In this document: positions 1,733-64,000 of the stretch, piece by piece | Position numbering within the stretch: position 1 is the first letter of the stretch | Layout: the number at the start of each line of letters is the position of its first letter | From: Malacoraja senta | Taxonomy: Eukaryota | Direction of reading: 5' to 3' | Assembly: GCA_038087875.1 (NCBI GenBank) | Contig: CM075988.1 | Location: forward strand, 5,642,001-5,706,000 | Length of the DNA: 64,000 bases | Made by a program: the position numbers and the translations under genes | The notes under the pieces: generated by a model | The model's database searches: none | What the model saw: only the letters and a program-made list of their open reading frames with translations | Told to the model about the DNA's origin: nothing

Positions 1733-1956
1733 AAGGAACTGCAGATGCTGCTCTAGACCGAAGAAAGGCACGAAATGCTGGAGTAACTCAACTGGTCAGG
1801 CAGCAGCACTGGGTAGAATGAATAGGTGACGTTTCGGGTCGAGACTCTTCTTCAGACACCTTCCTCAGTCTGAAGAAGGGTCTCCACCCTAAACGTCACC
1901 CACTCCTTCTCTCCAGAGATGCTGCCTCTCCCGCTAAATTACTCCAGCGTTTTGTG
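1733..1956. mobile_element. Older inverted pair of Penelope 3'-module units, with a hammerhead-like motif on each strand
   Basis: A minus unit ending ...GACGTTTCGGGTCGAGACTCTTCTTCAGAC is followed by a plus unit CTGAAGAAGGGTCTCCACCCTAAACGTCACC...TTACTCCAGC. Confidence 0.7.
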
Positions 1957-3431
1957 AAGGAGCCTAAAATCCGGACGGGTACCTGTGTTCTTGAATTCTT
2001 TGCGTGTCAATTATAGAGGAATGTTGTTGAGAATAATATTATTGTAAATTATGTTTTATTAGTTCGGCTTTACACGCGAGGGTGTGCTGTTCAGAATTCT
2101 TGCTCCAGTGGCATTTTCTGCGGATAACGCCAGAATAGTTTACAGGGCCAAGCTTTCTCCAGAGGACAGTCCTTGCTGTCATTGTGGGGAACGGATCTCA
2201 TGCGGAAGTCTAAGGTGGTCGGCGCACCCGTTAGAACCACCCCCCCCTCCCCCCACTCCACACACCCCCACACACACAATGTACAGGCCTTGTACAGGAC
2301 CCGATCCATTACACTCCTTCTCTTCGCCAATAGACAGTAACACACACTCGCCACCACCCGTTGTTGCGGCTTGACACAAAATGCTGGAGTAACTCAGCGG
2401 GACAGGCAGCATCTCTGGAGAGAAGGAATAGTTGACGTTTCTGGTCGAGATCCTTTTTCAGACCTGCGGAATCAGATCTGTAGTTCCTTCTGACACGTTG
2501 TAGCGGCGATGTAGACATAGATTTTTCACGCTCGATCACAGACTTGGGGGGGAAATAGCGCCTTGCCCACCGGGTCCTGCGAGAGAGTTGAGGTTCCCTC
2601 AGTCCTTGTCACGAAGACGCAAACGGAGCACGAAAAAACCATCAGCAAGACAGACACAAAAAAGCTGGAGTAACTCAGCGGGACAAGCAGCACCTCTGAG
2701 GAGAAGGAATAGGTGACGTTTCGGGTCGAGACCCTTCTTCGCATGCTGCCTGTCCCACTGGGTTACTGCAGGCCCACCCAACACAAAGCAAGGGTTTACG
2801 CTTCAGAATGGGCCAATTATACTCCGTTTTTTTCTGACTTGGGATTCCAAGATGCTTGTGGTAGGGATGGTGATCTGTGAACATTTTGAAACTAAAGAGA
2901 TTGTTACGATGTACAATTTATGAACCTGCTCCGGATTTGGTAACATGTATAATTTTGATGGGAGAAGAGGCAATTTGGAGATTATAACACAATGGGCCCG
3001 ATTAACTATTTCCCCTGTTTTTTAAGAACGGGGACAAGTTCCCACAATTATAAGAGAAAATGGTGAAAGGGCAGAAAGAAATCTGCTACTCCAAATACTC
3101 CAGCGAGCTGTCTGGAGCGCTGCTCGGGGCCATAATTAATTTGAGATTTATTTTATTGGAGAACTCCTAGTCTCCGCTGACCTTAGGAAAACAAGTCTGA
3201 AACCAGGACTTGGATGCGCTTGAATGAAACATAATATAACTGCAAAGTATTTCTTGCTTTCCATCTTTAAGGTTTTGTCTCGGCATGCTTAAAAATTAAT
3301 GCAGTTATCTTTAGAAAGTAATAAATGTCTGAGTTGTAATTAGATCATGGGCCCGCAGTTCGCAGCATTGTAATGAAGGGCAGATTATTACCCCACGCGA
3401 ACACCAAAGAGGGGGTTTATCCCAAATATTT

Positions 3432-3763
3432 ACCCCCCCCCTCTCTCACCTCTCCCTCTTACTCTATCTCCCTGCCTCTCACTCTCCCTCTCTCTTCCTC
3501 TCTCTCACTCACTCTTCTCTCTCTCCCTTTCTCCCCTCTTCCCCCCCCTCTCTCTCTCTCTCTCACACACTCCCCCACTCCCTTCCTCTCTCCCCCTCAC
3601 TCTGTCCCTCTCTCTTCCTTCTCACACCCTCTCTCTCTCTCCCTCTCTCCCTCCCCCTCTCCCCCTCTCCCTCTCTCTCTCACTCTTCCCCTCTCACATT
3701 CGTTCTCCCCCCCTCTCTCTGTCCCTCTCCCCCGCGTTCCCTCTCTCTCTCTCTCTTTCTCTC
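3432..3763. repeat. CT-rich low-complexity/microsatellite tract
   Basis: Almost pure pyrimidine (CT)n/(CCT)n. Confidence 0.95.
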
Positions 3764-4511
3764 GATGAGCTTTAGTTGAACCCTGGCTCAGAGTGAGTGC
3801 AGTGAACAGACTCAGAATTGTTCCACTTTCGCAGACCTCTCCCAGTTGGACGGAGACTGTCTGAAAACCAGCCTTTGTATAATAACACAAACGTTATGAC
3901 TGGATGAAAAAAAAGTGCTATTCTAAGGGCGTTAGGTACAAGTCCGCTCACCGCCGTCGAATATTAGAAGCATAAATGTTTTCTGAAAGTCCTCTGTCTC
4001 TGCGATATTGCTTCCCTTTGATTAAGTGTTACTGCATACAGTGTCTGCAATAAATGGACCAGATTCTACGCACCTGCAAATGTCTGGTTTTCACTTTGCA
4101 AAAAACGCTAGAGAAAGGTTAGAAACACCCGGAGATCGCACGGAATATTTACTTTCCGTTAGATTTAATTAAAAACTTCAGCTTTTTTTAAACGAAAAAT
4201 CTTCATGCCACATATACGCACTCATAACACATTGTGTGAATGAATTATATTTATCTAAGGGATCAAACTGGGGCGCTCCAAATGTACTTAAAAAAGGATA
4301 TATATACTGTAACAGTTTTACAATGTAATGGGGTCCATCACAATGGGGTCCGAAGGAACCTATTATCCATTCTTCCGTCGGGAATTCAACATATTCGAGT
4401 CTTCAACTTAAGCGGGGAGAAATGGACATTTCAGCTCATATTTGGAATGTGGGATTCTACAAATAAATCGTTGCGATTCTGTTTTTATGTTTATAAAATC
4501 TCGAAAACTTA

Positions 4512-4711
4512 NNNNNNNNNNNNNNNNNNNNNNNNNNNNNNNNNNNNNNNNNNNNNNNNNNNNNNNNNNNNNNNNNNNNNNNNNNNNNNNNNNNNNNNNN
4601 NNNNNNNNNNNNNNNNNNNNNNNNNNNNNNNNNNNNNNNNNNNNNNNNNNNNNNNNNNNNNNNNNNNNNNNNNNNNNNNNNNNNNNNNNNNNNNNNNNNN
4701 NNNNNNNNNNN
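4512..4711. other. Assembly gap (200 N)
   Basis: Run of N. Confidence 0.99.
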
Positions 4712-4812
4712 CAGTAGAGGTGTTAAAGTAAAGCCCTGACTACACTCTCAGCTAACATTAGAGGTTGCTTATAGAGTCATAGTCATAGCATGGAAACAGA
4801 CCCTTTCACCAC

Positions 4813-4852
<40 letters not shown>

Positions 4853-6235
4853 GGGGAGAGAGAGAACTTGGACAGGCATGTGTGTTGGTGCCATTCAGTG
4901 ATTTGAATACATCCTTGATTAGTACATGTGTCAGGGGTTATGGGGAGAAGGCAGGAGAATGGGGTTAGGAGGGAGAGATAGATCAGCCATGATTGAATGA
5001 TGTAGACGATGGGCCGAATGGCCCAATTCTTCTCCTATCACTTATGACAATTTGACCTTATGCAGAGGGGCATGAGACCTGTTATTTTGTATGGTTACTG
5101 TATTGATTGTTTTTATGTACTTTACTTGTATTTTGCTTTAATAAATAGTTATTTGTGCTCTTCAAGATGTGCTTTCTCCATTCATTGATGTAAATCCCTG
5201 AATCCTCCGTGTATTTTGTTTCAGGTCCAAGCCTCTCACTCTTTGCGGTACATTGTAGAAAAACCTGCCTTCAAACACCCTGTCAGATCATTCCTTTGTT
5301 TCGGCCGCACATCGTATTCTGTTTAATTATCCTTCCAATGGCAGCAGATCACATTCCCGCTCCCCCTGCTTCCCTTGTTCCATTACCCACCCTGCTCACC
5401 GATCGGACACCTGGCCTCAGTTTTATTGCACTTCACCCAAACTCTTCCCATTATCCAGGCCTTTCTGCTGATTAGGAGCAGGTAGCGCCTTCCCATTCCA
5501 CACACCATGCTCATGTTTAAAGTCGGTTACATTACTCCCTTGACTTTCCCTCACCTTTGCTCTGCTCCCCTGCCCGGCAAAGATAATTGTGCTGAGTTTC
5601 CTTGTTCACCTGAGTTTTGCAGCGTACCTTTTACGCCTGATTATCTATCGGCGTTTACACTTCACGCAAATTCTGCATACTTGCACACTAGGGCAGCACA
5701 GTGGCGCAGCGGTAGAGTTGCTGCCTTACAGTGCACCCAGGTTCGATCCCGACTACGGGTACTGTCTGGACGGAGTTTGTACATTCTCCCCGTGAACTGA
5801 ATGGTTGGCTGCTGGTCTGAACTACAATCAAATGTCTGGACAAGCTCATCATGCCAGATTTATGGATAATGTTATCATTACCATCATTGTGTCCATCTAT
5901 AATGTTTATAGATTATTATCTACATACATTATAGATATACACAAAATGTTGGAGTAACTCAGCGGAATATGCAGCATCTCTGGATAGAAGGAATGGGTGA
6001 TGTTTTGGGTCAAGACCTGAAACGTCATAATTCCTTCTAGCCAGAGATGCTGCCAGTCCTGCTGTGTTACTCCAACATATGTTAGAACATGATGTTTTAT
6101 TTATGAATGTAATGGATTCTGTAGTCTCCCATGAATAAATGTCTTCATCTCACTGCGTCAAGCAATGCTGAATGTTAGTGACACATAGGTTTGAAATCCC
6201 AGATGTGGGGATAGTGATCTTTTCAAAGACTTTTG

Positions 6236-8054
6236 AACAACCATATAACCATCACAGCACGGAAACAGGCCATCTCGGCCCTTCAAGTCCGTGCCGAACA
6301 CTTTTTTTTTTTTTTTTTTTAATAAATACTTCCCCCTAGTCCCATCTACCTGCACTCAGACCATAACCTTCCATTCCTTTCCCATCCATATACCCATCCA
6401 ATTTATTTTTAAAGGATAAAATCGAACCTGCCTCCACCACTTCCACTGGAAGCTCATTCCACACAGCTACCACTCTCTGAGTAAATAAGATCCCCCTAAT
6501 GTTACCCCTAAACTTCTGTCCCTTAATTCTCAAGTCATGTCCCCTTGTTTGAATCTTCCCTACTCTCAATGGAAAAAGCTTATCCGCGTCAACTCTGTCT
6601 AACCCGCTCATAATTTTAAAGACCTCTATCAAGTCCCCTCTTAACCTTCTGCGCTCCAAAGAATAAAGACCTAACTTGTTCAACCTTTCTCTGTAACTTA
6701 GTTGCTGAAACCCAGGCAACATTCTAGTAAATCTCCTCTGTACTCTCTCTATTTTGTTGACATCCTTCCTATAATTAGGCGACCAAAATTGTACTCCATA
6801 CTCCAGAATTGGCCTCACCAATGCCTTGTACAATTTTAACATTACATCCCAACTTCTATATTCAATGCTCTGATTTATAAAGGCCAGCACACCAAAAGCT
6901 TTCTTTACCACCCTATCTACATGAGATTCCACCTTCAGGGAACTATGTACAGTTATTCCTAGATCCCTCTGTTCAACTGCATTCCTCAATTCTCTATCAT
7001 TTACCATCTTATTTTGATTTGTCCTGCCGAGATGTAGTACCTCACATTTATCAGCATTAAACTCCATCTGCCATCTTTCAGCCCACTCTTCCAAATGGCC
7101 TAAATCTCTCTGTAGACTTTGAAAATCTACTTCATTATCCACCACACCACCTATCTTAATATCATCTGCATACTTACTAATCCAATTTTCCACACCATCA
7201 TCCAGATCATTGATGTACATGACAAACAACAGTGGACCCAACACAGACCCCTGAGGCACCCCACTAGTCACCGGCCTCCAACCTGACAAACAGCCATCCA
7301 CCATTACTCTCTGGCATCTCCCATTCAGCCACTGTTGAATCCATCTTGCTACTCCACCATTAATACCCAACAATTTAATCTTCTTAACCAACCTTCCATG
7401 AGGAACCTTGTCAAAGGTCTTACTGAAGTCCATATAGACAACATTCTCTGCTTTACCCTCATCAATTTCCCTAGTAACCTCTTCGAAAAATTCTAGAAGA
7501 TTAGTCAAACATGACCTTCCAGGCACAAATCCATTGACTGTTCCTAATCAGACCCTGCTTATCCAGATGCTTATATATATTATCTCTAAGTATCCTTTTC
7601 ATTAATTTGCCCACAACTGACGTCAAACTAACAGGTCTATAATTGCTAGGTTTACTCTTAGAACCCTTTTTAAACAACGGAACAACATGCGCAGTACGCC
7701 AATCCTCCGGCACTATTCCCGTTTCTAATGACATTTGAAATATTTCTGTCATAGCCCCTGCTATTTCTACACTAACTTCCCTCAATGTCCTCGGGAATAT
7801 CCTGTCAGGACCTGGAGACTTATCCGTTTTCATATTTTTCAAAAGTGTCCGCACCTCCTGTTCTTTGAATCTCATAGTTTCCATTGCTACTCTGCTTGTT
7901 TCCCTTACCTCACATAATTCCATATCCTTCTCCTTGGTGAATACCGAAGAAAAGAAATTGTTCAATATCTCCCCCATCCCTTTTGGCTCTGCAGATAGCT
8001 GTCCACTCTGACTCTCTAATGGACCAATTTTATTCCTTGTTATCCTTTTGCTAT
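6236..8054 (-). mobile_element. CR1-clade (HER1-like) LINE, 5'-truncated; ORF2 RT domain split by one frameshift near 7530
   Basis: ORFs 7501-8202 and 6336-7526 contain KSPGPD, NYRPVSLTSVVGK, SCLTNLLEFFE, DFSKTFDKVPH, SGVPQGSVLGP, YADD and RRLRGDLIEVFKI. The CR1-type 3' UTR ends in a short tandem tail. Confidence 0.92.
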
Positions 8055-8987
8055 ACATTGAACAAGTACATGGATACGAAAGGTTTAGAAAGATATGGGC
8101 CAAAACACAGGCAAATAGAACTAGCTTACATTGGTCAGCATGGATGGGTTGGGCCGAAGGGCCTATATCTGTGCTGTTTGACTCTAACCCATATCCAACC
8201 AAGAGAGGAGAGTAATTCTTCCTGTACCATGGAAATTGAATGCCTGAGCCCTGAATACAGCCATTTACCTACATACCTGTACGTCTTTGTTGTGTGGGAG
8301 GAAACTGAGGATCTCGGAAAAAACCCACGCGGTCACGGGGAGAACAGCTGCAAGTGCTGTAAGGCAGCAACTCTACCGCTGTGCCACCGTGCCGCCCCTG
8401 AATTGGTCTGCTTCTCTTTCTTCTTCTTCTTGTGTATGGTGTGCACAGCCTAAAGTTGCAGGACAACTTGTTGTATTTGATCTTATCTGATGGTGCACGC
8501 CGGGTTGATTGCATTCATTGAAACATGGCGGACCACGTGAAGGTTGCAATCTCCCACCCCAATTGGTCTGCTCAGGACTCGAGAAATGTTTGACCTGAAT
8601 GTAGTTTCAACATTGTACCGACCTTTTATTTGCCGTTTCATTTGCCGTTTACAGCTTAGGGAAGTGTGAAAACGCACACCTCCAGATTCAGAGGCAGTTT
8701 CTTCCCAGCTGTTATCGAGCAATCGAACCATCCTATCACCAACTAGAGAGCTGTCCATCTACCTCTTTGGAGACCTTCAGATTAATGTTAATCAAACTTC
8801 ACTGGACCTTATTTTGCACTAAATATGATTCCCTTTATCCTGTATCTGTTACAATGTGGACAGCTTCATTGTGATCATGTTCTAGGCGTTCCGCTGACTG
8901 GATAGCCCGCAACAAAAAAGCTTTTTACCGTATCTCATAATAAAGTAACTAAGTAAACTAAATAACTGTTTTGATAAATCTGTGTAA

Positions 8988-9152: not shown

Positions 9153-9779
9153 TTCTACAAGGGGGTTTTGAACACCCCCTTGCCTCCGTTTGGAGAAGAG
9201 TCCTGACCTGATACATCATCTGGACATTCCCTCCACACTTGCTACCTGACCTGCTGAGTTACCTCAGTATTTTGTGCCTTGTCTCTGTTCACGGCTTGGT
9301 GACGCAGCGATAGAGTTGCTGCCTTACAGCGTCAGCGTCGATCCTGACTACTGGTGCTGTCTGTTCGGAGTTTGCACGATTTCCCCGTGAACTACGTGGG
9401 TTTTCTCCAAGATCTTCGGTTTCCTCCCACACTCCAAAGACGTACTGGCTTGTAGGTTAATGGCTGTATCTCTAAACTAAACTAAGCCTGGTCATCTTTT
9501 CCCAATGCCGAGTTAGAAGAAAGAGTTCAGATATTTTCATATGGAGGGACATTATCTGTCCTCTGTAGCTGAATGGGAGTCACTGGGGGCAGGGTGATGG
9601 AGGGAGATGTTTCCCTGGGAGAGGATACTGAAATCATAAGGTCATAAGTAATAGGAGCAGAATTAGACCATTCGGTCCATCAAGTCTACTCCGCCATTCA
9701 ATCGTGGCTGATCTATCTTTCCCTCCTAACCCCATCTTCCTGCCTTCTCCCCATAACCCTAGACATCCCTGCTAATCAG

Positions 9780-10990: not shown

Positions 10991-12212
10991 CTATTTTTGG
11001 TTAACAAAACAAACAGCGCGGCGATCCCTCAGTCCCACCCCTCTCCTACAGTGACATAATCTTACGGGACGGTTGCTGGAGGGAAGTTTCACATGGCGGG
11101 AAGTGGGGATGCGGGATAAATTGTGCAGGGGTTATATGCAGGCAATGGAATGTAAATGAGCTGTTGGTGTTGACGGCTGAGATGGAGACAGGTTTGTGCT
11201 TGGAACCAATAAATGATGTCTCTTAGAGGGTACATAGGATGCAAGAGATCAGTAGGGGAACGGGATGATAGGACTACGCTCTGAACCAGCATAGACTGGA
11301 AGGGCCAGAATGGCCTCCATCAATATCATAAGGAAATTTGAGACGAGAAGGGATAAGTGAATTTGAGTTTATCTCACCGTTTGGCAGCAATAACATGAAT
11401 CGCTGGGACGGTATTGTACTGCCCTTTGCCAGAGATGTGATTAGCCGATTGATGAACGGTCCCGACACGGAACGTCACCTATCCATGTTCCCCAGAGATG
11501 CTGCCTGACCCGCTGAGTTACTCCAGCACTTTGTGTCCTTTCGACTTTTAAAAGCTGGCCCATGGACCTGAGTGGGAACATGCAAACTGATCATGACTTG
11601 CAGGGTGAAGCTGATGGCACAGTGTTAGCAGCAACTAGTTACCTCTCCAGCTGCACAGACTGCTTCACTTTGCAGAGCCAGAGTGAGAGGCAGCAGGAGG
11701 GGCAATGCCCAAGGCACTGTGCCCATGTGTGGTCAGCCTGCCAACCATCACATTCCACCCGGGCATGTAGACTGTGAACAGTCCAGTCTGGCTATGAAGC
11801 AAAAACAAGATCTGCTAAAGTACACAACAAAATTCCTTGAATACTAATTTGTAATTCCATTTCAGTCACTAATCCCATTGGAATGGAGAGACGAGTTGGA
11901 CCAATAGATAAACACGGTCATTTGGTCAATAATTCCATGTTGTTTACTGGTCAGAGTTTTTTCACCTCTTCCCGAATGGAAGGTGCTACTCGGGACACCT
12001 GCTCTTGGTTTGGGATGGTCTGGAGTTGGGCCTGGAAACCTGGGGCCACATTCATTGGTAGGGTGCGGCAGCAGCTCTGTAGCCGCACCTTTGTGTGCCC
12101 CGTGACAATGTTAGGGAAGGCAGGGGCTCATTGCAGGAGTACGTGCTGAGGGCACACTGAGGCTCGCAGCAGCCAACGCCAAGGCTCCGTGGGGGAGAAA
12201 CGCAGTCTGGTG

Positions 12213-40125: not shown

Positions 40126-40404
40126 GATTCCTTTCCTCCAGAGATGCTGCCTGACCTGCTGAGTTACTCCAGCATGTTTAGGAAGGAACTGCAGATGCTG
40201 ATTTACACCGAAGATAGACACAAAGTGCCGGTGTACATATGCATGCGCGTGTGTGTATACATATATATGTATGTGTAGGTAGTCACAAAATGCTGGAGTA
40301 ACTCAGCGGAACAGGCAGCATCTCAGGATCAGTGGAGGGATTCAGCCCTTCCTCCGAAACATAGAGGTTGTCCACTGTGGCGTCTCGTACACCTTCATAA
40401 TCCA

Positions 40405-47275: not shown

Positions 47276-47293
47276 TAGTTTAGGTACCAGAGG

Positions 47294-49842: not shown

Positions 49843-51055
49843 TCAACGTCACCACCAATTTCCATCCTGCACTCAAATTCACTTGGACCATCTCCGACAT
49901 CTGCCTCCCGTTTCTAGATCTCACCGTCTCCATCACAGGAAACAGACTATTGACCGACTTCTACTACAAACCTACTGACTCCCATAGCTATCTTGACTAC
50001 ACCTCTTCCCACCCAGCTTCCTGTAAGGACTCTATCCCCTACTCCCCATTCCTCCGTCTACGCCGCATCTGCGCCCAGGATGAGGTGTTCCATACCAGGC
50101 CATCGGAGATGTCCTCATTCTTTAGGAAACGGGGGTTCCCCTCTTCCATTATAGATGAGGCTCTCACTAGGGTTTCCTCGATATCCCGCAGTTCCGCTCT
50201 TGCTCCCCCTCCCCCCATTCATAACAAGGACAGAGTCCCCCCTTGTCCTCAGCTTCCACCCCATCAGCCGTCGCATACAACATATAATCCTCCAACATTT
50301 TCGCCACCTCCAACGGGATCCCACTACTGGCCACATCTTCCCACCTCCTCCCCTTTCTGCTTTCCGCAGAGACCGTTCCCACCGAAACTCCCTGGTCAAC
50401 TCATCCCTTCCCACCCAAACCACCCCCTCCCCAGGTACCTTCCCCTGCAACCGCAGGAGATGCAACACCTGTCCCTTTACTTCCCCCCTCGACTCCATCC
50501 AAGGACCGAACAGTCTTTCCAGGTGAGGCAGAGGTTCACTTGCACCTCCTCCAACCTCATCTACTGTATCCGCTGTTCCAGGTTTCAACTTCCCTACATC
50601 AGCGAGACCAAGCGCAGGCTCGGCGATCGTTTCGCTGAACACCTTCGCTCAGTCCGTCTTAACCAAGCTGAACTCCCGGTTGCTCAGCACTTCAACTCCC
50701 CCTCCCATTCCCAGTCTGACCTTTCTGCCCTGGGCCTCCTCCATTGTCAGAGTGAGGCACAGCGCAAATTGGAGGAACAGCACTTCATATTTCGCTTGGG
50801 TAGTTTACACCCCAGCGGTATGAACATTGACTTCTCTAACTACAGATAGCCCTTGCTTTCCCTCTCTCTCCATCCCCTCCCCCTTCCAAGTTCGCCCACT
50901 AGTCTTACTGTCTCTGTCTTTCTACATTCTATCTTTGTCCCACCCACTTCCCTGACATCAGTCTGAAGAAGGGTCTCAACCGGAAAAGTCACCCGTTCCT
51001 TCGCTCCAGAGATGCTGCCTGACCCGCTGAGTTACTCCAGCATTTTGTGTCTACC
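49843..51055 (+). mobile_element. Penelope-like element, 5'-truncated: RT thumb, GIY-YIG endonuclease and a 3' module with hammerhead motif
   Basis: FHPALKFT...LPFLDL...YKPTDSHSYLDYTSSHP...RLRRIC; frameshifted linker CNRRRCNTC; NLIYCIRC...YISETKRRLGDRFAEH...VAQHFN...P.GMN. Degenerate hammerhead at ~50963. TSD AACAGATTAGTTTA at 49829-49842 / 51056-51069. Confidence 0.92.
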
Positions 51056-51061
51056 AACAGA

Positions 51062-51378
51062 TTAGTTTAGTTTAGAGATACAACGTGGAAACAAGCCCTT
51101 CGGCCCATCGAGTCCAGGGCAACCAGCAAACCCCGCACATTAACACTATCCGACACATGCTAGGGACAATGTACACTTATGCCAAGCCAATTAACCCTAT
51201 AAATCTGTACGTCTTTGGAGTGTGGGAGGAAACTAAAGATCTCGGAGAAAACCCACGCAGGTGACGGGGAGAACGTACAAACGCCGTACAGACAGCACCC
51301 GTAGTCGCGATCGAACCCGGGCCTCTGGCGCTGCATGCGCTGTAAGGCAGCAACTCTACCGCTGCCCCACCGTGCCAC
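51062..51378 (-). mobile_element. HE1/V-SINE-type SINE, full length
   Basis: Diagnostic boxes, core and (TAAAC)n tail. Confidence 0.85.
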
Positions 51379-52876
51379 ACAGCACTAACAAGGGGAGTGT
51401 AATCAACTGGTGTCCGATGGCTACACGTGCTCCCGTGTCTTCAAGACAAAAGTCAGGAGATGCGGAGACGGAGAGAGAACAGGTTACGTAGCCAGTGGTG
51501 GTGGGAGTGGACTAATCAGCAACCATTGAATGTCGAACAAGCAAGAGCAGATACCTGAGCAATACATGGAATTGTAAATAATGTGGTGTTCCAGGGGAGA
51601 GTACGGGAATAGCAGAATGTAGGGACCGTGCAGGGATTATACCTTGTACCAAACGTTATTCCCTTATCATGTATCTGTACAGTGTAACGATACCATACGA
51701 TAGAACTTTATCTCAAATGGCTCGATTGTAATCATGTTTTGTCTTCCTGCTGACTGGTTAGCACGCAATAAATGCTTTTCACAGTACCTCGACACATGCA
51801 ACAATAATCTAAAGATAGACACAAACTGCCGGAGTAACTCAGCGGGACAGGCATCATCTCTGGAGAGAAGGAATGGATGACATTTCGGGTTTAGACCTTG
51901 CTTCAAACTGTCCTTCTCGCCAGAGATGCTGCCTGTCCAGCTGAGTTACTCCAGCATTTGGTGTCGATCCTCGGTTTAAACCAGCATCTGCAGTTCCTCC
52001 CTGAAAATAAACTAAAGTAATCTAAACTGAACTGAAGTGGAACTGAGGTGGAAGGTTAGCCATGATCTTGGCAAATGGTGGAACAGGCCCCTGGTAGAGG
52101 ACAGAGGAACCAGATCACCTACCCCGAACTCTTATATCTTGATGTAACGAAGCTATAGGAAAGTGCCAAGATATTCTCTCCCTGCAATAAATCATGCCCC
52201 ATGCCTGCCTAATCTCCAACAGATTCGAAAGAAGAAGGTCAATGAAGAGCAGCCATGTCCAGGGATGGAACAGGAGACCCTGGTCCTTGCTGGGACCTTG
52301 GTGGGACCTTGGGGATGAAGGTCCTTCATGGGGGTGGCCAAGCCCAGTGGCCTTGGCTCTGTGAGTTGGGAGAGGAGGGGGTGATGGGGAGAGGAGGGCA
52401 GTCTGTGCCCAGCCAGGGTGGGGCACCCTAGAACAACCACACAGGACCCCCCTCCCAACCCCCACCCTGACAGGATCATTATCACCGGACCACACACACA
52501 CCCCCCACTCCAACTGTGGTGCAGGCCCTATCCATGGACCAGGAATGGGGGAATGGGAGTGGGAATACCAGCTCCTCTCGATCTGTGGAATTAGGTCAGA
52601 AGATCTAATTCCATCGAAGGTTATAGGGAGAAGGCAGGAGAAAAGGGTTGAGGGGAAAAAAATAGATCAGCCATGATGGAATGGCGGAGCAAACTCAATG
52701 GGCTGAATGGCCTAATTCTGCTCCATGTCTTATGATCTCATGATTTTATGATCTTAGAAGCATCAGGGAGGCCTGACTGAGGGGGCAACTGTGAACATTG
52801 AGACCAGCGCTTAGTTCATTTAAGTGGCTTTTAGATAGGCACGTGGGTATGCAGGGAATGGAGGAATATGGATCAC

Positions 52877-53089
52877 TTGTGTAGAAAGGAATTGCAGATG
52901 CTGGTTTATTCCGAAGATAGACACAAAGTACTGGAGTAACTCAGCGGGTCAGGCAGAATCTCTGGAGAAAAAGGATAGGTGACTGTTCTGGTCTGAGGAA
53001 TGCTCCCGACCCAAAATGTCACCCATCCTTTTTCTCCAGAGATGCTGCGTGACCCGCTGAGTTACTCCAGCACTTTGTGTCTATCTTCG
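52877..53089. mobile_element. Penelope-derived fold-back insertion within a CR1 tail
   Basis: Inverted pair; direct repeat ATATGGATCAC at 52866-52876 / 53090-53100. Confidence 0.75.
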
Positions 53090-55002
53090 ATATGGATCAC
53101 ATGCAGGCAGAGGGGATAAATGTAACTTGGCATCGTGTTCAGCGTGGACATTGTGGGCCGAAGGGCCTGTTCCTGTGCTGTACTGTTCTATGTTTGTTGT
53201 TTGAGAGAGACCAGGTGGTGCAGCGGTAGAGTTGCTGCCTTACAACGCCAGAGACCCTGGATCGATCCTGTCTACTGGTGTACGGAGTTAGTCCGTTCTC
53301 CCTGTAACCTGCGTGGGTTTTCTCCAGGTGCTCCGGTTTCCTCCCACAGTCCAAATACTTACAGGTGTGTAGGCTAATTGGCTTTGGTAAAATTGTAAAT
53401 TGTCCCGTGTGTGTGTGTGTGTAGGATAGTGTTAGTGTGCGGGGATCGCTGCTGGGCCGAAGGGCCTGTTTCCTTGCTGTACCTCGAAACTAATCTAAAC
53501 AGTAGGTGAAAACTTGAATGAGAGCCCAAACATGATGCGAACCCAGTCCGTGACCCAGATGGGGAGACCTCAAGTGGACCTGACAAGACAACTCGCATTA
53601 TACGAATGATGTTTGTTTAACAAACAGCCAGTGCTGAGTGCAGTATCAACAGAGTGGAAGGAATTACATTGAGTAACAGTATGTCCATAGGGTCTAGGAG
53701 CAGAATGAGGCCATTCGGCCCATTAGGTCTACTCCGCCATTCAATCATGGCAGATCTATATTTCCCTCTCAACCCCATTCTCCTGCCCCATAAACTCTGG
53801 CACCCGTACTAATCAAGAATCTGTCAATCTCTACCTTAAAAATACGCAATGACTTGGCCAACACAGCACTGGACTGTGGCAATGAATTCCACAGATTCTC
53901 CTCCTTAACCTATCCTCTTTTTCCACCTCTCTTCCAGCTTTGTCCAGCTGACTAAAGAAATTCCTCTTCATCTCCTTTCTATAAGTTTGTTATTTTATTC
54001 TGAGGCTATGGCCTCCGGTCCTAGGCTCTCCTAATAGTGGAAACCTCCTCTCCACATCCACTCTATCTAGCCTTTCACTATTCAGTAAGTTTCAATGATG
54101 TCCCCCTCATCCTCCTAAACTCCAGCCTGTCCAGGCCCAGTGCCGTGTGTGTGCCGTGTGTGAATATTAGCCGGGCATTCCTTATTTCAACTCCACCTTT
54201 CAAAAGGCTTCCCTGTCTGGTCAGAGCTGGGAACTGTTAACCCTTTGCAACCTTGTCTTTGTGGAGGCAGTGTTCTCCTCCTCTGTGATGAGTGGACTAG
54301 AATGTGGTTGGAAATGCTTTAAATGGTATCAAGGCTTCTTCACGAGTTCATGACCTCAAAATGTTCTTCAAGAGGATTGGCAAAAATGTTGAGTTCCTGA
54401 CCGATTAGGTGGAACAATGTTTCATAATTACGCGAGGGGGTTGTTTTTGGTTGTTAAATTTCTGGTATATGTCCATTTATGGGAGGAATTGTGAACTAAA
54501 GAGCAGCAACTAGAGGTTGAATTGCAGACATTGGCATGTTTCTTTTATAATGGGGACTTCTTGACAAGTGTGAAGAATTCAGAAATGTTGGAGATAAGAT
54601 GTGGCCCTGAAGTCTAACGTCTCTTGAAGTGTTTGGTTTTAAAATGAGTGGCTAATTTCACCCAGTTTAAATTGAAATGAATGAATGATGGTCAATTTTG
54701 TCCAGTCTTGTTCAGTTTTAATTGTATGTCCAAGATATCCCATAGGCACCCAGTATTAGAAAGCCTGTATGTTGCATTTTACTTGGAAACAAAGGCACAA
54801 AGTGCTGGAGTAACTCAGAAGGTCAGGCAGCAGCTTTGGAGAACATGGATAGGTAACGTTTAGGGTCGGGACACTTCAGACTGACTGTAGTAGGGGGGAC
54901 AAAGCTGGAAGAGAGGTGCGAAAAGAGGATAGGTTAAGGTGGGTGAGGGTGGGGGTGAGGATGGGGGTTACAACTTTGTATGTGGGTTAGTATAATGATT
55001 GA

Positions 55003-55372
55003 CTTCTCTAACTTCAAGTTACCCTTGCTTTCCATCTCTCTCCATTATTCCGCCATCCTAGTTCTCCGACCAGTCTGACTGTCCTCCTGATTATATTTCA
55101 TCTTTGTCTGCTTCGTTGTCACCTTCTCCTCGCTAACAACGATCCATTCTACATTTTCCCTGAACTTCGTCCCCTTTGATGTCTCGTTTTTACACCTTAC
55201 CCTTCCAAATCTCCTTGTCTCCCTCTCCCATGACTGTCGGTCTGAAGAAGGGACTTGACCCGAAACGTCACCCATTCCTTCTCTCCAGAGATGCTGCCTG
55301 TCCCGCTGAGTTACTACAACATTTTGTGTCTATCTTCGGTGTAAACCAGCATCTGCAGTTCCTTCCTACACT
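55003..55372 (+). mobile_element. Penelope 3' UTR fragment with hammerhead motif (55242-55272)
   Basis: Starts at the ORF-end motif GACTTCTCTAAC also seen near 50830; contains CTGAAGAAGGGACTTGACCCGAAACGTCACC. Confidence 0.75.
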
Positions 55373-55610
55373 ACACACCTTCCTAGTCTATACACACTAG
55401 ACTAATTTACTTATAGTAAGCCCATATCCATCTCTACCATTCAAGTACCTGTCCAAAAGTATTTTATATGTTGGTAGCTCACATCGTCTGTGTGAAAAAA
55501 ATATTTTGTTTAGCTTTAGTTTTAGTTGTAGAGATACAGCAAGGAAACAGGCCCTTCGGCCCACCAAGTCCACGCCGACCAGAGATCCCCGCACATTAAC
55601 ACTACCCTAG

Positions 55611-58600
55611 TGTAGATGAGATATGCATGTGCCTTTAACATAGTGACCTCACACCCACTAACCACTCCTCATATCACAAGTATAACTACAACCTCCACAC
55701 CCACAGATCGCTCTCTAGTTCCTGTGACAGACCACGTACAGCTAGTGCAATGTATAATGATCCAGTATGAATAAAGATAGTAAAGTAACGATGCCTCGTT
55801 ATCAATCCTTTACATGGTGTCAAATAACTTACCTTGCGCCTCCCGTTTATCGGTTTATCATTTAATTTTGACCCAGTTTTTTGTTTCCCCCCCTAACTGT
55901 TTTTGTTATGGCCTCTTCTGCCCGTAAGCCCGATGCGCTCGTTTTCGATTTCGACATCGCCCTTCAATGGGACATATTCAAACGCGACTTTGAACACTAT
56001 TTCACGATTGCCCATCCTGGCGCCACCCCCGCTCTCAAAGCCTCACTGCTTCTCAACTTGGCTGGTCCCAACGCCTTGACTCGCTCTGACTTCTTCGTCT
56101 ACGCTCCTGGAGAATCAGCTCGGGACCCGGCATGTCTGTTGGCTAAGTTTGACGCTATTTGTGACATTCCGACTAATTGCATTTTAGAACGTTTTAAACT
56201 GTTCGCGCGGCGTCAGCTCCCTGGGGAATCTGCTGAGAACTATGTCATTGCGCTGCGGGACCTGGGCAGGCGCTGCCGCCTCGAGACGTGGACCCCCGAT
56301 AATGTCATCAGGGACCTACTGGTTTACGGTCTCCGTGATGAGAAGCTCAGGTCCGAACTACTTCGCAAGCCGGATCTGACCTTGGCCGATGCAATGCACG
56401 CTACTCGCTTAGCCGACGCTGTTTCCGCGGCGGCGCCGCCGGCTGAACAGGCGATCAACTTTGCCAGCACTCCTAGCTATCTCATGAACGCACCCCAGTC
56501 GCGACCCCCGGTGTCGCTCGCTGCTCGAGGGGGACGCGCCCCGGGGTTCGGTGGTGCCACAAGGGGAGGCACCCAGCAAAGGTGCCCTAATTGCAACTTC
56601 ACAACTCATCAGTTCAATGTGTGCCCTGCGCTGGGAAAGAACTGCAATTCCTGTAATAAGTTGAACCATTTTGCTGCAGCTTGTCATTCCCGTGGGAAGC
56701 CTGTCGCTGCTCGAAGGCAAAATTTAAACAACCTTCTACAGTCGGATAATGATCTCAGCTCCCAGCACTATTCCGATGAACATTCTGTTCCTACATCTAA
56801 CTCCTCTCAGGGGGAAACCAGCTTGTTTACCGTGGTGGACGCACCTGCTATGATAACGGATCCTTCTGTGCAAGTCACTGTGAACAACTCGACCTTCACG
56901 GCCAAAATCGACACTGGGGCGGTTACCAATGTTATGTCAACATCTCTTTTCAACCAGATAAGGACTAATGAGAAGATATTTTCTCAGAGCTCAAACCTGC
57001 ATGCCTACGGTGGGGAGATCCTTACTCCTGTGGGCAAGGCCACACTACACTGTAAGATACTGAAGGCCACTCGGCCCCTCACCTTCTTTCTCCTCAATCG
57101 AAGTTGCGTTCCCCTGCTGGGGATCCAGGCATGCCAGGAAATGGGACTGGTGTCCTTCCACCGGGACATCCACCACGTGCAGGCTCTTATGGACCCGCTG
57201 GCCGAGTATCCCGACCGCTTTGATGATAAGCTAGGCAAACTACCCTGCAGCTACAAGATTGAAGTGGACCATAAGATCGTTCCTGTGGTCCATGCTCCTC
57301 ACCGTATTTCCTTCGCCATGAGGGACAAAGTGGAGGCGACCCTACACAGTATGGTACAAATGGGCGTCCTAAAGGCGGTCGTCGAGCCCACCAGCTGGGT
57401 CTCTTCCATGGTTGTTGCTGCTAAAAAGGACATGAGTGAGATACGCATCTGCATCAACCCCAGAGACCTCAACCTGGCCATTCGGCGCCCTCACTACCCT
57501 ATGAGAACGGTGGAAGACGTCGCTGCACGGGTTGGTCCAGCAACGGTCTTTTCGGTCCTCGATGCCAAGAGTTCATTCTGGCAGATACCACTGGACGAGC
57601 GGTCGTCCATTTTGACAACCTTCGCCACCCCCTACGGAAGGTTTCGGTTCCTCCGAATGCCCTTCGGAATCAACTCTGCCAGTGAGGTATTCCAGCGAAC
57701 CATGGAACAGTTGTTTTCAGATCTGCCTTGCGCCATAATTGTTGACGACATCCTCGTTTACGGTAAGGATGTTGCCGAACACGATGTCAACCTCCGCCTG
57801 ATCCTGGACCGGGCCAGGCAAATCAACTTGAAACTGAACCCCAAGAAGTGCCGATTCCGCGTCTCGGAGGTCACCTACGTTGGACACGTATTCACCGCCG
57901 AGGGGCTAAAGCCAGACCCGCAGAAAACGACTGCCATCTCAGGGATGCCTCCTCCTACTAACGTGGCAGGCCTGCAACGCTTCCTCGGCTTGGTAAACTA
58001 CCTGGGGAAGTTCATCCCCGACCTAAGCGAACTCAGCGCTCCCCTGAGGGATCTGATCAAAAAGGACACTTCCTGGCTTTGGTTACCCAATCATCAGAAG
58101 GCATTTGACATTCTTAAGTCTAAACTGATCAGCACACCCACGCTCAAGTTCTTTGACCTGCGGCATCCCATTGTCCTCACCTGCGACGCCTCTCAATTCG
58201 GACTCGGTGCCGCCTGCCTCCAGGTCCATGACGGCCTGCAGCTGCCTGTCTCATTCGCGTCCCGCACCATGACCGCCACCGAACAGCACTACGCGCAGAT
58301 TGAGAAGGAGCTACTGGCCGTGGTGTTTGCCTGCTCCAAATTCCGGGACTACATCGTGGGCAACACTTTCACCGTTGAAACTGACCATCAACCACTTGTT
58401 ACCATCCTCAACAAACCGATCCATGTGGCCTCATCACGTCTGCAGCGCATGCTGCTGCAGCTCCAGCGTTTCACGTTCACGGTGGTTTATCGTAAGGGGA
58501 AGGACATGTTCGTAGCCGACACGTTGTCTCGCGCCCCGCTGACGTCCACTGCTCGCCACCAATACGAAATGTCCGAGTTACTAGTACTACGATTGAACTT

Positions 58601-60353
58601 CGTCCCCTCGCCACAGATGAAGTCCCTGGTTGAACACACTACCAACGACCCTGCCCTGCAACAGCTGTCTGCCGTCATCCGGCAGGGCTGGCCTGACCGT
58701 CGCTCGGCACTGCCGGCTGGAGCCGTGCCCTACTTCCTGATTCGGGACAAGCTCGTATTGCACGACGGCGTGGTGGTGAAGGGTCACAAAGTGGTCGTGC
58801 CCGCGGCGCTGCACGACACTATTTTCAGGTCGCACACCGCGGTCACACTGGGGCCGAAGCCACTTTGTCTCTCGCCAAGGCACAGTTCTATTGGCCGGAT
58901 ATGGCAAAGTACATCTGGGAGAGGGTCTCATCGTGTTCCACCTGCAACAGCCGCGCCCCCCATCAGCAGCGTCAGCCGCTTCTACAGCAGCCCGCGCCCG
59001 GACTGCCCTGGATGGCGCTCGCCACAGACATTTTCGAGTGGCGGGGCAAACATTTCCTGGTACTCGTTGACTTCTACTCCAGCTGGTTTGCGGTTGACCG
59101 GCTGCCTTCCGTGACCCTCTTCGGCCGTCATCGACAGGTTGGACCCTCACTTTAGCACTTTTGGCCCCCCGGCAAGCTTGCAGTCGGACAATGGCAGCCA
59201 GTTCACGAGCTCCGAGTTTAAAGCGTTCGCTTCCAGATGGAACTTTCGCCATTTCACAAGCAGCCCGGAGTACCCGCAAAGCAACGGTTTGGCCGAGCGC
59301 GCGGTCCGCAGTGCTAAGCACCTGTTGGAACAGTGTGGTGGCATTAACTCCGACTTCCACCTGGCCCTCCTCAGCCTTCGGAACATTTCTCGCGACCCTG
59401 CCATGGGTTCACCTGCTCAGCGGCTCCTGTCTCGCGCTACCAGGCTCCCACTCCCGGTGGCCCAGCGATCCCTCATACCCTCGGTCCTTCCACCTGCGGC
59501 GGTTCAGAAACGAATTGCCTTCAGGCAAGACGTCCAAAAGCGGTCCCATGACAGGTCCTGCCACCCGCTGCCGCCCCTCTTCCCCGGTCAAGTAGTCCGT
59601 ATGCAAACCACTCCCGGTCACTCCAAGCTCGCTACTGTCGTCGGCTCTGCGGGGTCGCCCAGGTCCTATTTCGTCGACTACGCTGGGACCATTTACCGAC
59701 GGTCTCGCCAGCACCTTCGGCTCGTCCACGAGCCGCGTCCTCCTGCCGCCGATCCCTTTGCTCCCCCGCTGCCTGTTTCGCGTCCGGCCGTTGCCCTGCC
59801 CGTGATTCCCTACATGCCTCGCTCTGCTCCTCCTTCGCCCCCTCCGCTCCAACACACTCCGACTAGTCCTCGCACGCCCCCCCGCGCTCTTCCCGGTATG
59901 GCCCCGCATCCCCTCCGGTTTCGGTGCCGCGATCTCTTCCGTTTCCTCCCGTTTCTCCCTTTCAGGTTCGTCTGTCCCCGCTGGTGCCTCTTCCTCCTCC
60001 AGGAAGGGTGGATGGCAAGACGCGAAACCGGGCGGGACGTCTGGTCAAACCGCCTGACCGCTATGGCGATGTTGCCTAGCTATCCTAGCGCATGAGCCGT
60101 GGTCGCCATGTCACCTTTGTATTTGCCTGTCAGTTTCGGGGAGGAAGGATGTAGATGAGATATGCATGTGCCTTTAACATAGTGACCTCACACCCACTAA
60201 CCACTCCTCATATCACAAGTATAACTACAACCTCCACACCCACAGATCGCTCTCTAGTTCCTGTGACAGACCACGTACAGCTAGTGCAATGTATAATGAT
60301 CCAGTATGAATAAAGATAGTAAAGTAACGATGCCTCGTTATCAATCCTTTACA
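55611..60353 (+). mobile_element. Full-length Ty3/Gypsy LTR retrotransposon (Mag-like), inserted in a SINE
   Basis: Two identical 204-bp TG...CA LTRs (55611-55814, 60150-60353); 5-bp TSD CCTAG; PBS TGGTGTCA at 55815; PPT GGGGAGGAAGGA at 60138-60149. Confidence 0.97.
55908..60078 (+). pseudogene. Single gag-pol ORF of the Gypsy element, frameshifted in the integrase region
   Basis: Twin zinc knuckles CPNC...H...C / CNSCNKLNHFAAAC; protease IDTGA; RT IVDD; RNase H TCDAS...ADTLSR; integrase HHCC and D-D-E (DIF, SDNG, NGLAER). Indels near 58818, 59117 and ~59900; C-terminal RAGRLVKPPDRYGD lies in a shifted frame. Confidence 0.9.
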
Positions 60354-61336
60354 CCTAGGGACAATGTACACATACACCAAGCTAATTAACCTACAAACCT
60401 GTACGTCTTTGGAGGGTGGGAGGAAACCGAAGATCTCGGAGAAAATCCACGCGGAGAACGTACAAACCCCATACAGACGGCACCCATGGTCGGGATCGAT
60501 CCGGTGTCTCTGGCCCTGCAACGTTGTCAGGCAGCAACTCTACCGCTGCACCTCGGTGCCGCCCACACGGCAGGCCACCTCTAAATTTGCCCCCTCACAC
60601 CATAAAACCTGCAGTCTAGTTTTAGTTTCTCCTACCCTGGGATAAACTCTGACTATATCCTATCTGTGCTGTGACTTGTTGACATCAGGAATTAATTCCC
60701 CATCACACATCGCCGATACCTTCAGGGTTGTCTTTTGCTGTGATAATCCGATCAGTGTGGAATTTATCTATCATCAGTCTCTTCTCGCTGCTACCATCAG
60801 GCAGGAGGTACAGAAGCCCAAAGTCTACACCACCATGGGAGTGGTCTTGGAGGAGAGGATGCTCCTCAAACTGCGGAGCATCTTGGACAATGCAGCTTAC
60901 ACCCTCCATGACGCACTGGTCAACCTGAGGAGCACCTTCAGCAACAGACTGGTTCCACCAAGGTGCGGTACAGAACGCCACAGGAGATCTTTCTTGTGTT
61001 TTATGACTGTTGGCAGATCAATTTCCCTCCAGGGATAAATAAAGTTCCATCGTATCGTATCGTACCAGGTTCAGGAACAGCTACTTTCCTACAGAACCAT
61101 CAGGTTCTTGAACCGACCCAGACAACCCTAATCCTATCTTGGCAGCAGAACACCACAGGCCATCTCTTGCTCTAGCTTGGACTTGTTTTCTAATTGTGTT
61201 TTTTGCCCTGAGCTTCCCTGAAAGTGACGACACAGGGCGGCCAAGAAGGGTTGGCCATCATCATTCAGGGTATTGAGTATAGAAGTTGGTGCACAAAATG
61301 CTGGGGTAACTCAGTGGGACAGGCAGCATCTCTGGA

Positions 61337-61372
61337 GGTGACGTTTCGGGTCGAGACCCTTCTTCAGACTGA
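61337..61372 (-). ncRNA. Intact consensus copy of the Penelope-associated minimal hammerhead motif
   Basis: Reverse complement TCAGT-CTGAAGA-A-GGGT-CTCG-ACCC-GAAAC-GTC-ACC. Confidence 0.7.
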
Positions 61373-61944
61373 ATCAGTATTTATCGTCAGGTGTAGAAGC
61401 AAGGAACTGCGGATGCTGGTTGACTGGCTGAGATATTCCAGTTTCAGTGTTAATTGTAGTGCACAACGACAGTGAGCCACAGGTACAACGAAGACCTTGC
61501 TTGCAGCAGTATCACAGGTACATTGACTCAGGCAATGAATACAAATATAAATCATACATACATTATCCAAGGTAAGGAAAGGGCAAGACTGTGTGTAAAA
61601 ATAAACAAGAGTTTAGTGCAAACTCACAATGAGGAAACATCCTTGGTAGTGGAAGCACATCCTCAGTAGCCTCCCCTGCTCACGAGTATTATTGGCCATG
61701 GGAATGGGAATTATTCATGTGACACACACTCCTCCAGAAAGCCCGTGAGCTTTGTTTATTCTCAAAATGCCGATTTATTTTTCCCACAGTTCAGTGCCAA
61801 AGTGCTCGAGTGTACTGTGTGTAGCATGTTGCCTCCACACAGCCTGCCATGTAGACTAACTCTGGCCATCTTGTGTCTCTTTTACTTTAAGAGTGGCTGG
61901 TGTAGGTGTAGGTGTAAGACCAACAATGAAAACATTCACCTGCT

Positions 61945-62129
61945 CACCTCTCTCCTGTCTCTCGTACTCACTCTCTCTCACTCTCTCTTTCTCACTCTCT
62001 CCCTCTCTTCCCTTTCTCCCTCTCACTCACTCACTCTCTCCCTCTCTTAGTCACTTGTTCACTCTCTCTCTTTCTCTACCACCCACTCTCAGTCTCTCCC
62101 TCTCTCCCTCTCTCTCGCTCTCATTCTCT

Positions 62130-62203
<74 letters not shown>

Positions 62204-62253
62204 CTCTTTCTCTCTCTCTCTCACTCACCCTCTTTCTCACCCTCTCTCTTTCT
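61945..62253. repeat. (CT)n microsatellite/low complexity
   Basis: Pure (CT)n core at ~62140-62200. Confidence 0.95.
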
Positions 62254-63169
62254 AGGTCAGCCATGATTGAATGGTGGAATAGACTTGGAGGGCCTAATGG
62301 CCTGATTCTGCTCCTATGACCTTATGAACGGATGCTGGGCTCAGCTGGTGCTCCCTCTCCACACGGAGGCAAGGGGGCCTTTGACGTGGCTGCTACTTTG
62401 GAGGTCACTGCAGTGAAGCCACCATGTTTCCATGGCGTGATCAGAGGCCAGGCTGGATTTTGTAGAGATACAGCATGGAAGCAGGCCCTTCGGCCCACCC
62501 AGTTAATACTGACTATCGAATACCTGTTCACACCGGTGTGATGTTATCCCACATTCACATACACTCCCTACACACTAGGGACAATTCACAGAGGGCCAAT
62601 TAACCTACAAACCCACACGTCTTTGGGATGTGGGAGCAAACCGGAGAACCCGGAAGAAACACACGCAGACAGTGGGAGAATGTGCAAACTCCACACAGAC
62701 AGCACCCGAGGTCAGGAATGAACAAAGCCGGGTCTCTGGCGCTGTGAGGCAGCAGCTCTACCCGCTGCACCACTGTGCCCGCTGGCTTCTGTAAATTGTC
62801 CCTAGTGTGTAGGATAGAGTTAGTGTACGGGATGATCGCTGTCCGGTGCAGCCTGGTGGGCTGAAGGGCCTGTTTCCGTGCTGTTTCTGTATTTCTAAAG
62901 CAGGTTGAAGAGCTGATAACCTGGTCATTTTCATTCAGAGCCAGCACAGAACTGGAAGAAGAACCATGGGCGGAATCAGCAGCTGGGATGTTGATTGGGC
63001 CCACTATAGAGTGACTGACAAGGAAGAAGTGGTATCATTCAGTTTAACATCACTCCATCATCTTGGTCGACATTAAAGCAAACTTTGGGAGTGTAGTTTG
63101 AAGATACCCAGTGTGGCAGGGGAGGCTGGAGATGCTTGTAGATTCTCAGCATGTCATGAGGTCTCCAAG

Positions 63170-63477
63170 CTTAGTTTCGAGAAACAGCATGGAAACAGGC
63201 CCTTCGGCCCACCGAGTCTATACCGACCATCGATCACACCAGTTCTATGTCATCCCACTTTCTCATCAACTCCCTGCACACTGGGGGCAATTTACAGAGG
63301 GCAATTAACTTACAAACCCGCATGTCGATGGGATGTGGGAGGAAACCGGAGCGCCCGGAGAAAACCCATGCGGTCACAAGGAGAGCATGCAAACTCCACA
63401 CAGACAGCGCCTGAGGTCAGGATCGAACCCGGCGCTGTGAGGCAGCAGCTCTACCAGCTGTGCCTCTGTGCCGCCCT
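63170..63477 (-). mobile_element. HE1/V-SINE-type SINE, diverged
   Basis: Core and box motifs recognisable. Confidence 0.75.
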
Positions 63478-64000
63478 GATTATGAGAAGCCTGGCTTCTA
63501 GTGGCCGCCCATAGCCGGGGTCTACTTCAAGGGGAGGTCGAAGGTGAAGACCAGGGGAGAAGGAAGATGGTGCCACTGTTCCCAACAGAGGCTTCCTGTG
63601 TCCGAGGGAGGAACTTTGGAGAACAAGAAACTCCTCACTTTTTGAAATTGGCAAATAGTGTCAACCATATCAAATGCCATCAGTCTGAAGAAGGGTCCCG
63701 ACCTGAAATGTCACCCATCCTTTATCTCCAGACACACTTTGTGTCTATCTTCATGTTAAATTAGTATCTGCTGTTCCTTCCTAGATGGGTGTCAGAGGTT
63801 ATGGAGAGAAGGCAGGAGAATGGGGTTAGGAGGGAGGGAGAGATAGATCAGCCATGATTGAATGGCGGAGTAGACTTGATGGGCCGAATGGCCTAATTCT
63901 GCTCCTATCACTTATGAACTTCTGATCTTAGACAACATCATATCAATGAATGTTTAAAACTGGAAATAAGCTGTTTTTTATTGATGGTCATGCTGCTACA

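Follow-up and report, generated by a model that had tools for sequence, protein, structure and literature searches.

A hammerhead-bearing terminal module of a Penelope-like element in the skate Malacoraja senta, many short copies of which begin just before the ribozyme motif

A 64,000-nt stretch of the genome of the skate Malacoraja senta (NCBI GenBank assembly GCA_038087875.1, contig CM075988.1, positions 5,642,001 to 5,706,000 of the forward strand), here termed the window and numbered from its first letter, contains a short, abundant repeat that carries a minimal hammerhead ribozyme motif. Sequence comparison identifies the repeat as the 3′-terminal module, or pseudo-long terminal repeat (pLTR), of a Neptune-type Penelope-like element (PLE), present as several subfamilies. 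This class of repeat and its genomic pattern are already described, and the motif alone adds a lineage. A less ordinary feature is where the short copies start: many of them begin immediately ahead of the motif, and the predicted cut site is the start of none; this edge likely marks the start of the RNA that was copied. The many short copies constitute a large natural record of template ends, which could bear on what PLE hammerheads do and on what follows once reverse transcription has been initiated.

A profile of 143 columns, seeded on 11 window copies that bear the motif, detects 42 pieces at E < 0.001 and five weaker ones; the reversed window gives no match. At a threshold of E < 0.05 the pieces form 30 clusters, and they occupy 4,083 bp (6.4% of the window), about one per 1.5 kb. 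A 31-nt pattern yields 15 matches with up to three mismatches (0 in each of 100 shuffles) and 23 with up to five edits. All 16 positions listed in an initial annotation of this DNA are motif copies on the correct strand, displaced by 2 nt at most; its claim of a very high copy number stands, but the density it gave, about one per 3 kb, was too low. Copies display 72%–96% identity to the majority line, with the most change in CpG columns, thus most copies are decaying. No exact motif match was found in viral contigs.

The parent element is represented at positions 49839–50849 (+) by a 5′-truncated, frameshifted PLE open reading frame (ORF) with the thumb region of the reverse transcriptase (RT), a CX4CXXC linker and, at the C terminus, a GIY-YIG endonuclease of the Neptune type. 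Its closest homologs are in Leucoraja erinacea and in sharks and rays. The endonuclease part is 77%–82% identical to L. erinacea proteins, and the thumb region is 67% identical over 125 aa to homolog P0003, which has Pfam RVT_1 and GIY-YIG matches. The PLE fragments of the window alone show no significant Pfam family. With the RT core absent from the window, placement in Neptune is based on the linker and the endonuclease, i.e. a C-terminal GIY-YIG domain with conserved Cys/His residues (by the Pfam match on P0003) and a CX2-5CxxC linker. This linker is a mark of Neptune and Nematis elements (PMC8557442), and Neptune PLEs as described also share the C-terminal GIY-YIG domain with CCHH-type residues and a hammerhead near the 3′ end (PMC8557442, PMC3846280).

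In two copies the hammerhead lies 3′ of a PLE ORF end. In the first, a pyrimidine-rich 3′ untranslated region (UTR) at 50850–50957 (+) (pyrimidine fraction 0.80) extends from the stop codon to the hammerhead; the terminal module that follows (50958–51056 (+)) lacks the tail, has its C3 at 50963, 113 nt past the stop, and has lost the palindrome. The second copy, of another subfamily, shows the last codons of a PLE ORF and the 3′ UTR at 54990–55236 (+), 76% identical to 50818–50939 over 122 nt, and a full terminal module at 55237–55371 (+). This module consists of the hammerhead (55242–55272, with a 3-bp helix I and a predicted cut after 55269), the body, a first 3′ end at 55337, and a tail to 55371. 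Pyrimidine-rich, UTR-like sequence is found upstream in eight of the 42 pieces (for those at 18225, 45864 and 54770 the call is based on composition and short matches only). Because two copies directly follow a PLE ORF end and eight carry UTR, the repeat is the PLE terminal module. An upstream pLTR was not seen in the window.

The 5′ starts of the 42 pieces, assigned to classes by eye, are distributed as follows: 8 at model columns 45–82, 7 at columns 16–32, 19 at columns 3–14, and 8 that reach into the UTR. The 19 starts at columns 3–14 lie from −9 to +3 of C3, i.e. within 12 nt around the TCAGT that precedes the core, and these 19 stops occur among 27 pieces at risk, where the stopping rate further 3′ would predict 6%. 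None of the 42 pieces begins or ends at the predicted cut site (columns 39/40). Identity upstream of the motif drops from 0.64 at −5 to 0.40 at −6. Two of the edges are confirmed by their flanks: the solo copy at 25382–25477 (+), which begins at position −1, reaches the first 3′ end and lies inside another repeat, has a perfect 15-bp target duplication, and the short solo copy at 42433–42529 (+), which starts at C3, has an unrelated repeat upstream right up to the boundary.

Four sequencing runs of related organisms, one of them a raw poly(A) RNA run of a relative, were aligned to positions 54975–55410. Matches were obtained with 235,875 and 263,023 contigs in the two large runs, and with 19,295 of 7.3 million raw RNA reads. 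Among the loose 5′ ends listed, the one at position 55240 is strongest in each of the four runs, with TCA before it and then unlike flanks (agreement 0.34–0.36); the exact clip at 55240 also reflects reference mismatches at 55236 and 55239. RNA depth across 55240 changes from about 340 to 6,250 (about 350 at the ORF end), a step that is inflated by UTR divergence between subfamilies and by the reference mismatches. Over the module this poly(A) RNA run has almost the same depth on the plus and minus strands, and its reads are thus mostly read-through. A search across sequencing runs listed no RNA run with a match, a result that has no bearing on expression. In run X24, plus-strand first mates outnumber minus-strand ones about 3:1 over the ORF end and UTR (54990–55200) and the module is symmetric; the strandedness of the library is not known.

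Among the clusters there are 10 head-to-head pairs (two with a weak second arm), and a full tail is present on exactly one arm in six of them. The junctions are often on TCAG-N-CTGA or in helix II. Inverted 5′-truncated copies with a 30–40-bp tail have been described for Neptune PLEs, together with head-to-head copies, an optional one-arm tail and irregular target duplications (PMC8557442, PMC3846280); the arrangement seen here is therefore a known PLE pattern, although the inserts in the window are mostly 100–270 nt. The pair at 52878–53099, with one arm tailed, is flanked as a whole by a 14-bp duplication (1 mismatch), and because the target duplication encloses the whole pair, the pair represents one insertion. 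Direct repeats of 13–15 bp are found around three of the 30 clusters (against 0.3% of shuffled flank pairs at ≥12 bp). An empty-site comparison by flanks gave colinear matches at one of 15 sites, too few to use.

At the other end, the module has two 3′ ends 34 nt apart, since the loose ends in runs X24 and X22 fall at 55337 and 55371; distant relatives have two 3′ peaks as well. The Poseidon element PAc of Anolis carolinensis likewise has two 3′ ends one tail apart, keeps an uncut hammerhead, and yields no RNA reads that stop where the motif is cut (Frangieh et al. 2024, PMC11167929). The tail matches two RT start sites of this anole element. PAc differs in that it belongs to another clade and its ORF begins inside helix II, and the available part of that account reports no 5′ hot spot.

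The initial annotation described the motif as a minimal type I hammerhead derived from a PLE, and a feature-by-feature fit to the published consensus bears this out. The family majority carries the core boxes CUGANGA and GAAA and an NUH triplet. Alignment to the consensus displays the extra nucleotide that separates position 9 from 10.1 (an A after A9), the G10.1–C11.1 pair, and a palindromic 15.2–16.2 without loop 3 that is C–G in the majority; the extra A, the loopless palindrome and the loop II variants are all as first described. The minimal hammerheads of PLEs in PMC4209133 have the same CUGANGA-H, G10.1–C11.1, GAAA, loopless palindromic 15.2–16.2 and NUH, and they too are mostly single dispersed motifs, with opposite-strand pairs and few in full elements. 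By this comparison the motif is an already described metazoan minimal hammerhead, a putative ribozyme. Helix II is 4 bp in window copies and contiguous helix I is 0–3 bp; relative to the table in PMC4209133, a 4-bp helix II and a helix I of 2–3 bp are at the low end. Thousands of minimal hammerheads per genome were reported for coelacanth and Xenopus (Cervera and de la Pena 2014, PMC4209133), but the density here is far higher than in that account, whose supplement, as far as available, has no chondrichthyan and whose accessible text does not mention a 5′ edge fixed at the motif. Metazoan PLE motifs are reported to cut weakly and only as dimers (PMC4209133; PMC6765202); in the anole element the motif depended on the protein, and insertion could do without it (PMC11167929).

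Both core boxes are intact in 10 of the 25 copies that hold the first box region, and five of these 10 also keep the C15.2–G16.2 palindrome and at least three of the four helix II pairs. Most palindrome losses are on CpG columns and are deamination-like. The same applies to most of the G–U pairs at 10.1–11.1, which do not appear to be selected variants. A GUU triplet had also been proposed as a variant, but the window has no complete GUU copy: the GUU pieces at 1528 and 1639 are without the CUGANGA box and the one at 54879 has a deletion. The copies at 40095 and 61337, once suggested for cleavage assays, would be poor substrates, since the first has 0 contiguous helix I pairs and the second an 11-nt deletion directly after the cut site.

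No Rfam hammerhead model matches the window up to E = 10, a search that the initial annotation had proposed. The top Rfam matches are microRNA-precursor models on inverted pairs, all under the gathering score. Inverted PLE pieces at 1584–1710 and 37011–37195 score as weak microRNA precursors, with E down to 2e-6, and such inverted pairs are a source of false microRNA-precursor annotation. Minimum-free-energy folds of four copies display no hammerhead fold; this is expected without a stable helix III and was not counted either way.

The core is conserved more than the tail, as had been predicted. Mismatches to the majority at non-CpG positions number 17 in 265 cells of the core and 249 in 1998 cells of the body (p = 0.003), a comparison in which a profile seeded on motif-bearing copies may favour the core. 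Distant relatives were represented by 80 metagenome loci that encode proteins 42%–55% identical, with the strict motif sought within 600 nt of the ORF end. It was found in 20 of the 57 loci having at least 400 nt downstream, in every case 100–152 nt past the ORF end; the core is the same in these relatives and the helices differ, with compensatory changes. In a set of 12 hand-picked sequences (six from the window and six relatives), helices I and II change in compensation: six of seven pairs are changed on both sides and 90.5% of cells are paired (slid controls, 17%–52%), with few independent events because four of the six relatives are closely related. Taken by themselves, the window copies show weak covariation. 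P0004, a protein predicted from the zebra shark, reads through the PLE stop and ends in LMKGLRPKRQ, like a translated hammerhead module, and suggests that the same motif is present in sharks.

The short copies had been regarded as a distinct non-autonomous family, a view that the present data do not support. A tree was made from 35 of the 42 pieces (seven with fewer than 70 columns were dropped) with CpG columns removed. This tree mixes short copies with UTR-bearing ones in three groups or more, and forcing the eight long copies into one clade is rejected by the approximately unbiased (AU) test (p = 0.002), on about 120 columns and with most branches weak. The two copies that adjoin an ORF end and the eight of 42 pieces with UTR argue in the same direction.

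The explanation regarded as probable, although well short of certain, is that uncleaved RNA is copied by the RT-endonuclease of the PLE itself from one of two internal start sites, with run-off at the RNA 5′ end just before the motif. The PLE protein would nick DNA and start reverse transcription internally at two sites in the tail, as proposed from the anole element (PMC11167929). The transcript of a tandem PLE would start inside the upstream pLTR (PMC2377424); because it begins there, initiation in the first pLTR would give a complete 100–135-nt cDNA whose end is fixed where the RNA starts, comparable to the strong-stop DNA of retroviruses. A pair of these cDNAs, or a single one that folds back, could join at TCAG-N-CTGA or in helix II and form head-to-head pairs with one arm tailed. 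Selection on source elements likely maintains the ribozyme, which would cut only in dimeric form or with help from protein, and most genomic copies would be decayed passengers. Should the 5′ edge be the place where the RNA begins, it would favour the copying of uncleaved RNA in vivo, and one mechanism would explain both solo pLTRs and head-to-head pairs.

Several points weigh against this explanation, in addition to the limits given above for the tree and for the clip and depth step at 55240. No pile-up of RNA read starts or ends is present anywhere on 54975–55410 in the raw RNA run, although its reads are mostly read-through. Secondary copies in the distant relatives, at loci selected by ORF, have scattered starts that do not peak at the motif; the fixed 5′ edge may be lineage-specific. 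No tandem pLTR-ORF arrangement was found among the 80 fetched loci and no full-length or tandem skate element was seen. Target duplications of at least 13 bp are found in only three of 30 clusters. Lastly, the Penelope transcript of D. virilis starts well upstream, so that it does not match a start at −3, and its intron ends at helix I (PMC2377424, PMC4209133). A spliced template, by analogy with D. virilis and with CAG/T as the 3′ splice site, was also considered as the origin of the edge and was rejected for most copies: TCA(G) is kept upstream, and there is no shared exon.

An extension of the copying of uncleaved RNA is put forward tentatively and with considerable doubt. The hammerhead module may double as an internal RNA polymerase II promoter, having an initiator at TCAGT and a downstream element that overlaps the ribozyme core; the strong-stop-like cDNA of 100–135 nt would then be the most frequent product of Penelope transposition and would integrate on its own, be transcribed and be re-copied. 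TCAGT at the edge is initiator-like. The downstream-promoter consensus is matched at four of five positions at +28 to +32, a weak match, as the ribozyme core fixes those bases, and no RNA 5′ ends were seen at the TCAGT edge in the one poly(A) RNA run of a relative. If the proposal is correct, a self-renewing short ribozyme element fills several percent of the skate genome; the internal promoter would also settle where the PLE template has its 5′ end, and the copying of uncut RNA in vivo would be shown.

It is rather unlikely that the edge is an ordinary 5′ truncation at a sequence-driven hot spot, where the RT drops off a long transcript or cDNAs join at the self-complementary 5′ half of the hammerhead, and the RNA has no end at that place. 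An RT is expected to pause on entering a helix from its 3′ side rather than at the motif's 5′ edge, and this counts against such a hot spot, as do the solo copies without an inverted partner that share the edge (18738, 25382, 41537, 42433, 63679). It would, on the other hand, account for the several head-to-head junctions on TCAG-N-CTGA or inside helix II, for the seven of 42 pieces that start in helix II and for the eight that extend into the UTR; palindromes at inverted junctions and self-priming have been described for PLEs (PMC3846280).

Still less likely is that short copies with an internal promoter are self-transcribed and re-mobilised in trans, in the manner of short interspersed nuclear elements (SINEs) or retrozymes, and have arisen repeatedly from different PLE subfamilies. 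The short unit is indeed discrete, 100–135 nt with fixed 5′ and 3′ ends, and has the initiator-like TCAGT mentioned above. Summed contig depth in the first hammerhead bin is 9-fold (X22) and 7-fold (X18) higher than at the ORF end, a measure that is not copy number. Head-to-tail joints, 55371 to 55240, are rare (18 and 17 contigs in two runs of relatives; the spacer is unknown), and in none of the 30 clusters do two complete hammerheads follow each other head to tail. The AU test rejects one separate family, and no short-only diagnostic subfamily is demonstrable in the window, where the GUU group has only short members but consists of three pieces. Non-LTR retrozymes (PMC7229834; bioRxiv 10.64898/2026.07.22.740005) resemble the short unit in being small and non-coding, with a type I hammerhead, a relationship to PLE pLTRs and many dispersed monomers, and the preprint has families in one chondrichthyan. 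However, they are defined by head-to-tail tandem units and circular RNA, whereas copies here are solo or head-to-head with a minimal motif. No description from skates or sharks turned up in the literature search, whose reach did not include Dfam, Repbase, subscription journals or the 2026 preprint's supplements, where the family may be listed.

That the short unit is a hammerhead cleavage product, cut and then copied or circularised, is highly improbable and was rejected: the motif is under selection and circular intermediates have been proposed for PLEs (PMC4209133), but none of the 42 pieces begins or ends at the predicted cut, no loose end or read pile-up is at 55269/55270 among the best-supported positions listed, and the anole element inserts without needing cleavage (PMC11167929).

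Other head-to-head pairs are as follows. Two adjacent pairs occupy 1528–1956: 1528–1657 (−)/1639–1744 (+), of the GUU subfamily and joined in helix II, and 1725–1857 (−)/1864–1956 (+). At 2371–2496 a short copy (2371–2464 (−)) is accompanied by a weak inverted tail piece (2471–2496 (+), E = 0.71), and the pair at 2647–2771 consists of 2647–2740 (−) and 2743–2771 (+). The pair at 5926–6078 has its junction inside helix II and that at 26289–26531 is centred on a TCAG-T-CTGA near-palindrome. In the pair at 27474–27885 the minus arm (27759–27800 and 27474–27538) is split by about 220 bp; at 51796–52006 the tail is on the plus arm only. Two independent modules have tails that end in the same other repeat at nearly the same site (41482–41537 and 52818–52872, 82% over 56 nt), possibly a target preference.

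Two clusters of several pieces contain perfect-core copies. In the four-piece cluster at 40014–40333, the 40095 copy has a perfect core and helix II without helix I. At 61291–61443 the perfect-core copy with the deletion after its cut site is at 61337–61367 (−), with a piece of tail and a small inverted piece ahead of it. ORF translations also display short units arrayed in tandem at 40283–40890, between two clusters of the module.

Among short solo copies found by the profile, that at 9184–9280 (+) is old, and others are at 11450–11543 (+), at 41537–41675 (−), with a tail, and at 63679–63785 (+), with an internal deletion. The copy at 18738–18873 (−), also tailed, has a 13-bp direct repeat in its flanks, offset by an A-tract. 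The profile further detects a piece of the tail only at 28605–28670 (−), a piece truncated 3′ of the hammerhead at 32456–32532 (−), a short decayed copy with loop TGCG at 35491–35561 (+), and an old piece that starts near helix II at 41220–41291 (+).

UTR-bearing copies include 18225–18411 (+), in which most of the hammerhead is deleted and a second partial piece follows; 40859–41070 (−), with a tail; 45864–45939 (−), which is old and has the hammerhead partly deleted; and 54770–54910 (−), with a GUU triplet and a 3-nt deletion after the first box. A UTR fold-back with a tailed module is present at 19805–20105 (+) (C3 at 19975) and at 36893–37186 (−) (C3 at 37023). These are in the two inverted, 91% identical copies of a 732-bp block (19481–20212 and 37507–36796), which contains the 3′ end of a long interspersed nuclear element (LINE), a 70-bp spacer, the PLE UTR fold-back, the tailed hammerhead module and about 100 bp more. 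The block is either a local duplication or a composite mobile unit.

Other repeats are present in the window. A long Gypsy-type LTR-retrotransposon ORF of 1,080 aa, with RT and RNase H matches, is at 55872–60095 (+) and has an integrase-like continuation in another frame. LINE RT fragments of different kinds are at 6336–8268 (−), 20440–22830 (+) and 33666–34882 (+). An abundant 300-bp interspersed repeat, probably a SINE, occurs at 51059–51374 and in about ten other places (13955, 23317, 28146, 29760, 30532, 43442, 53214, 62465 and 63168), with 70%–83% identity between copies; one copy adjoins the 3′ end of the 50963 module.

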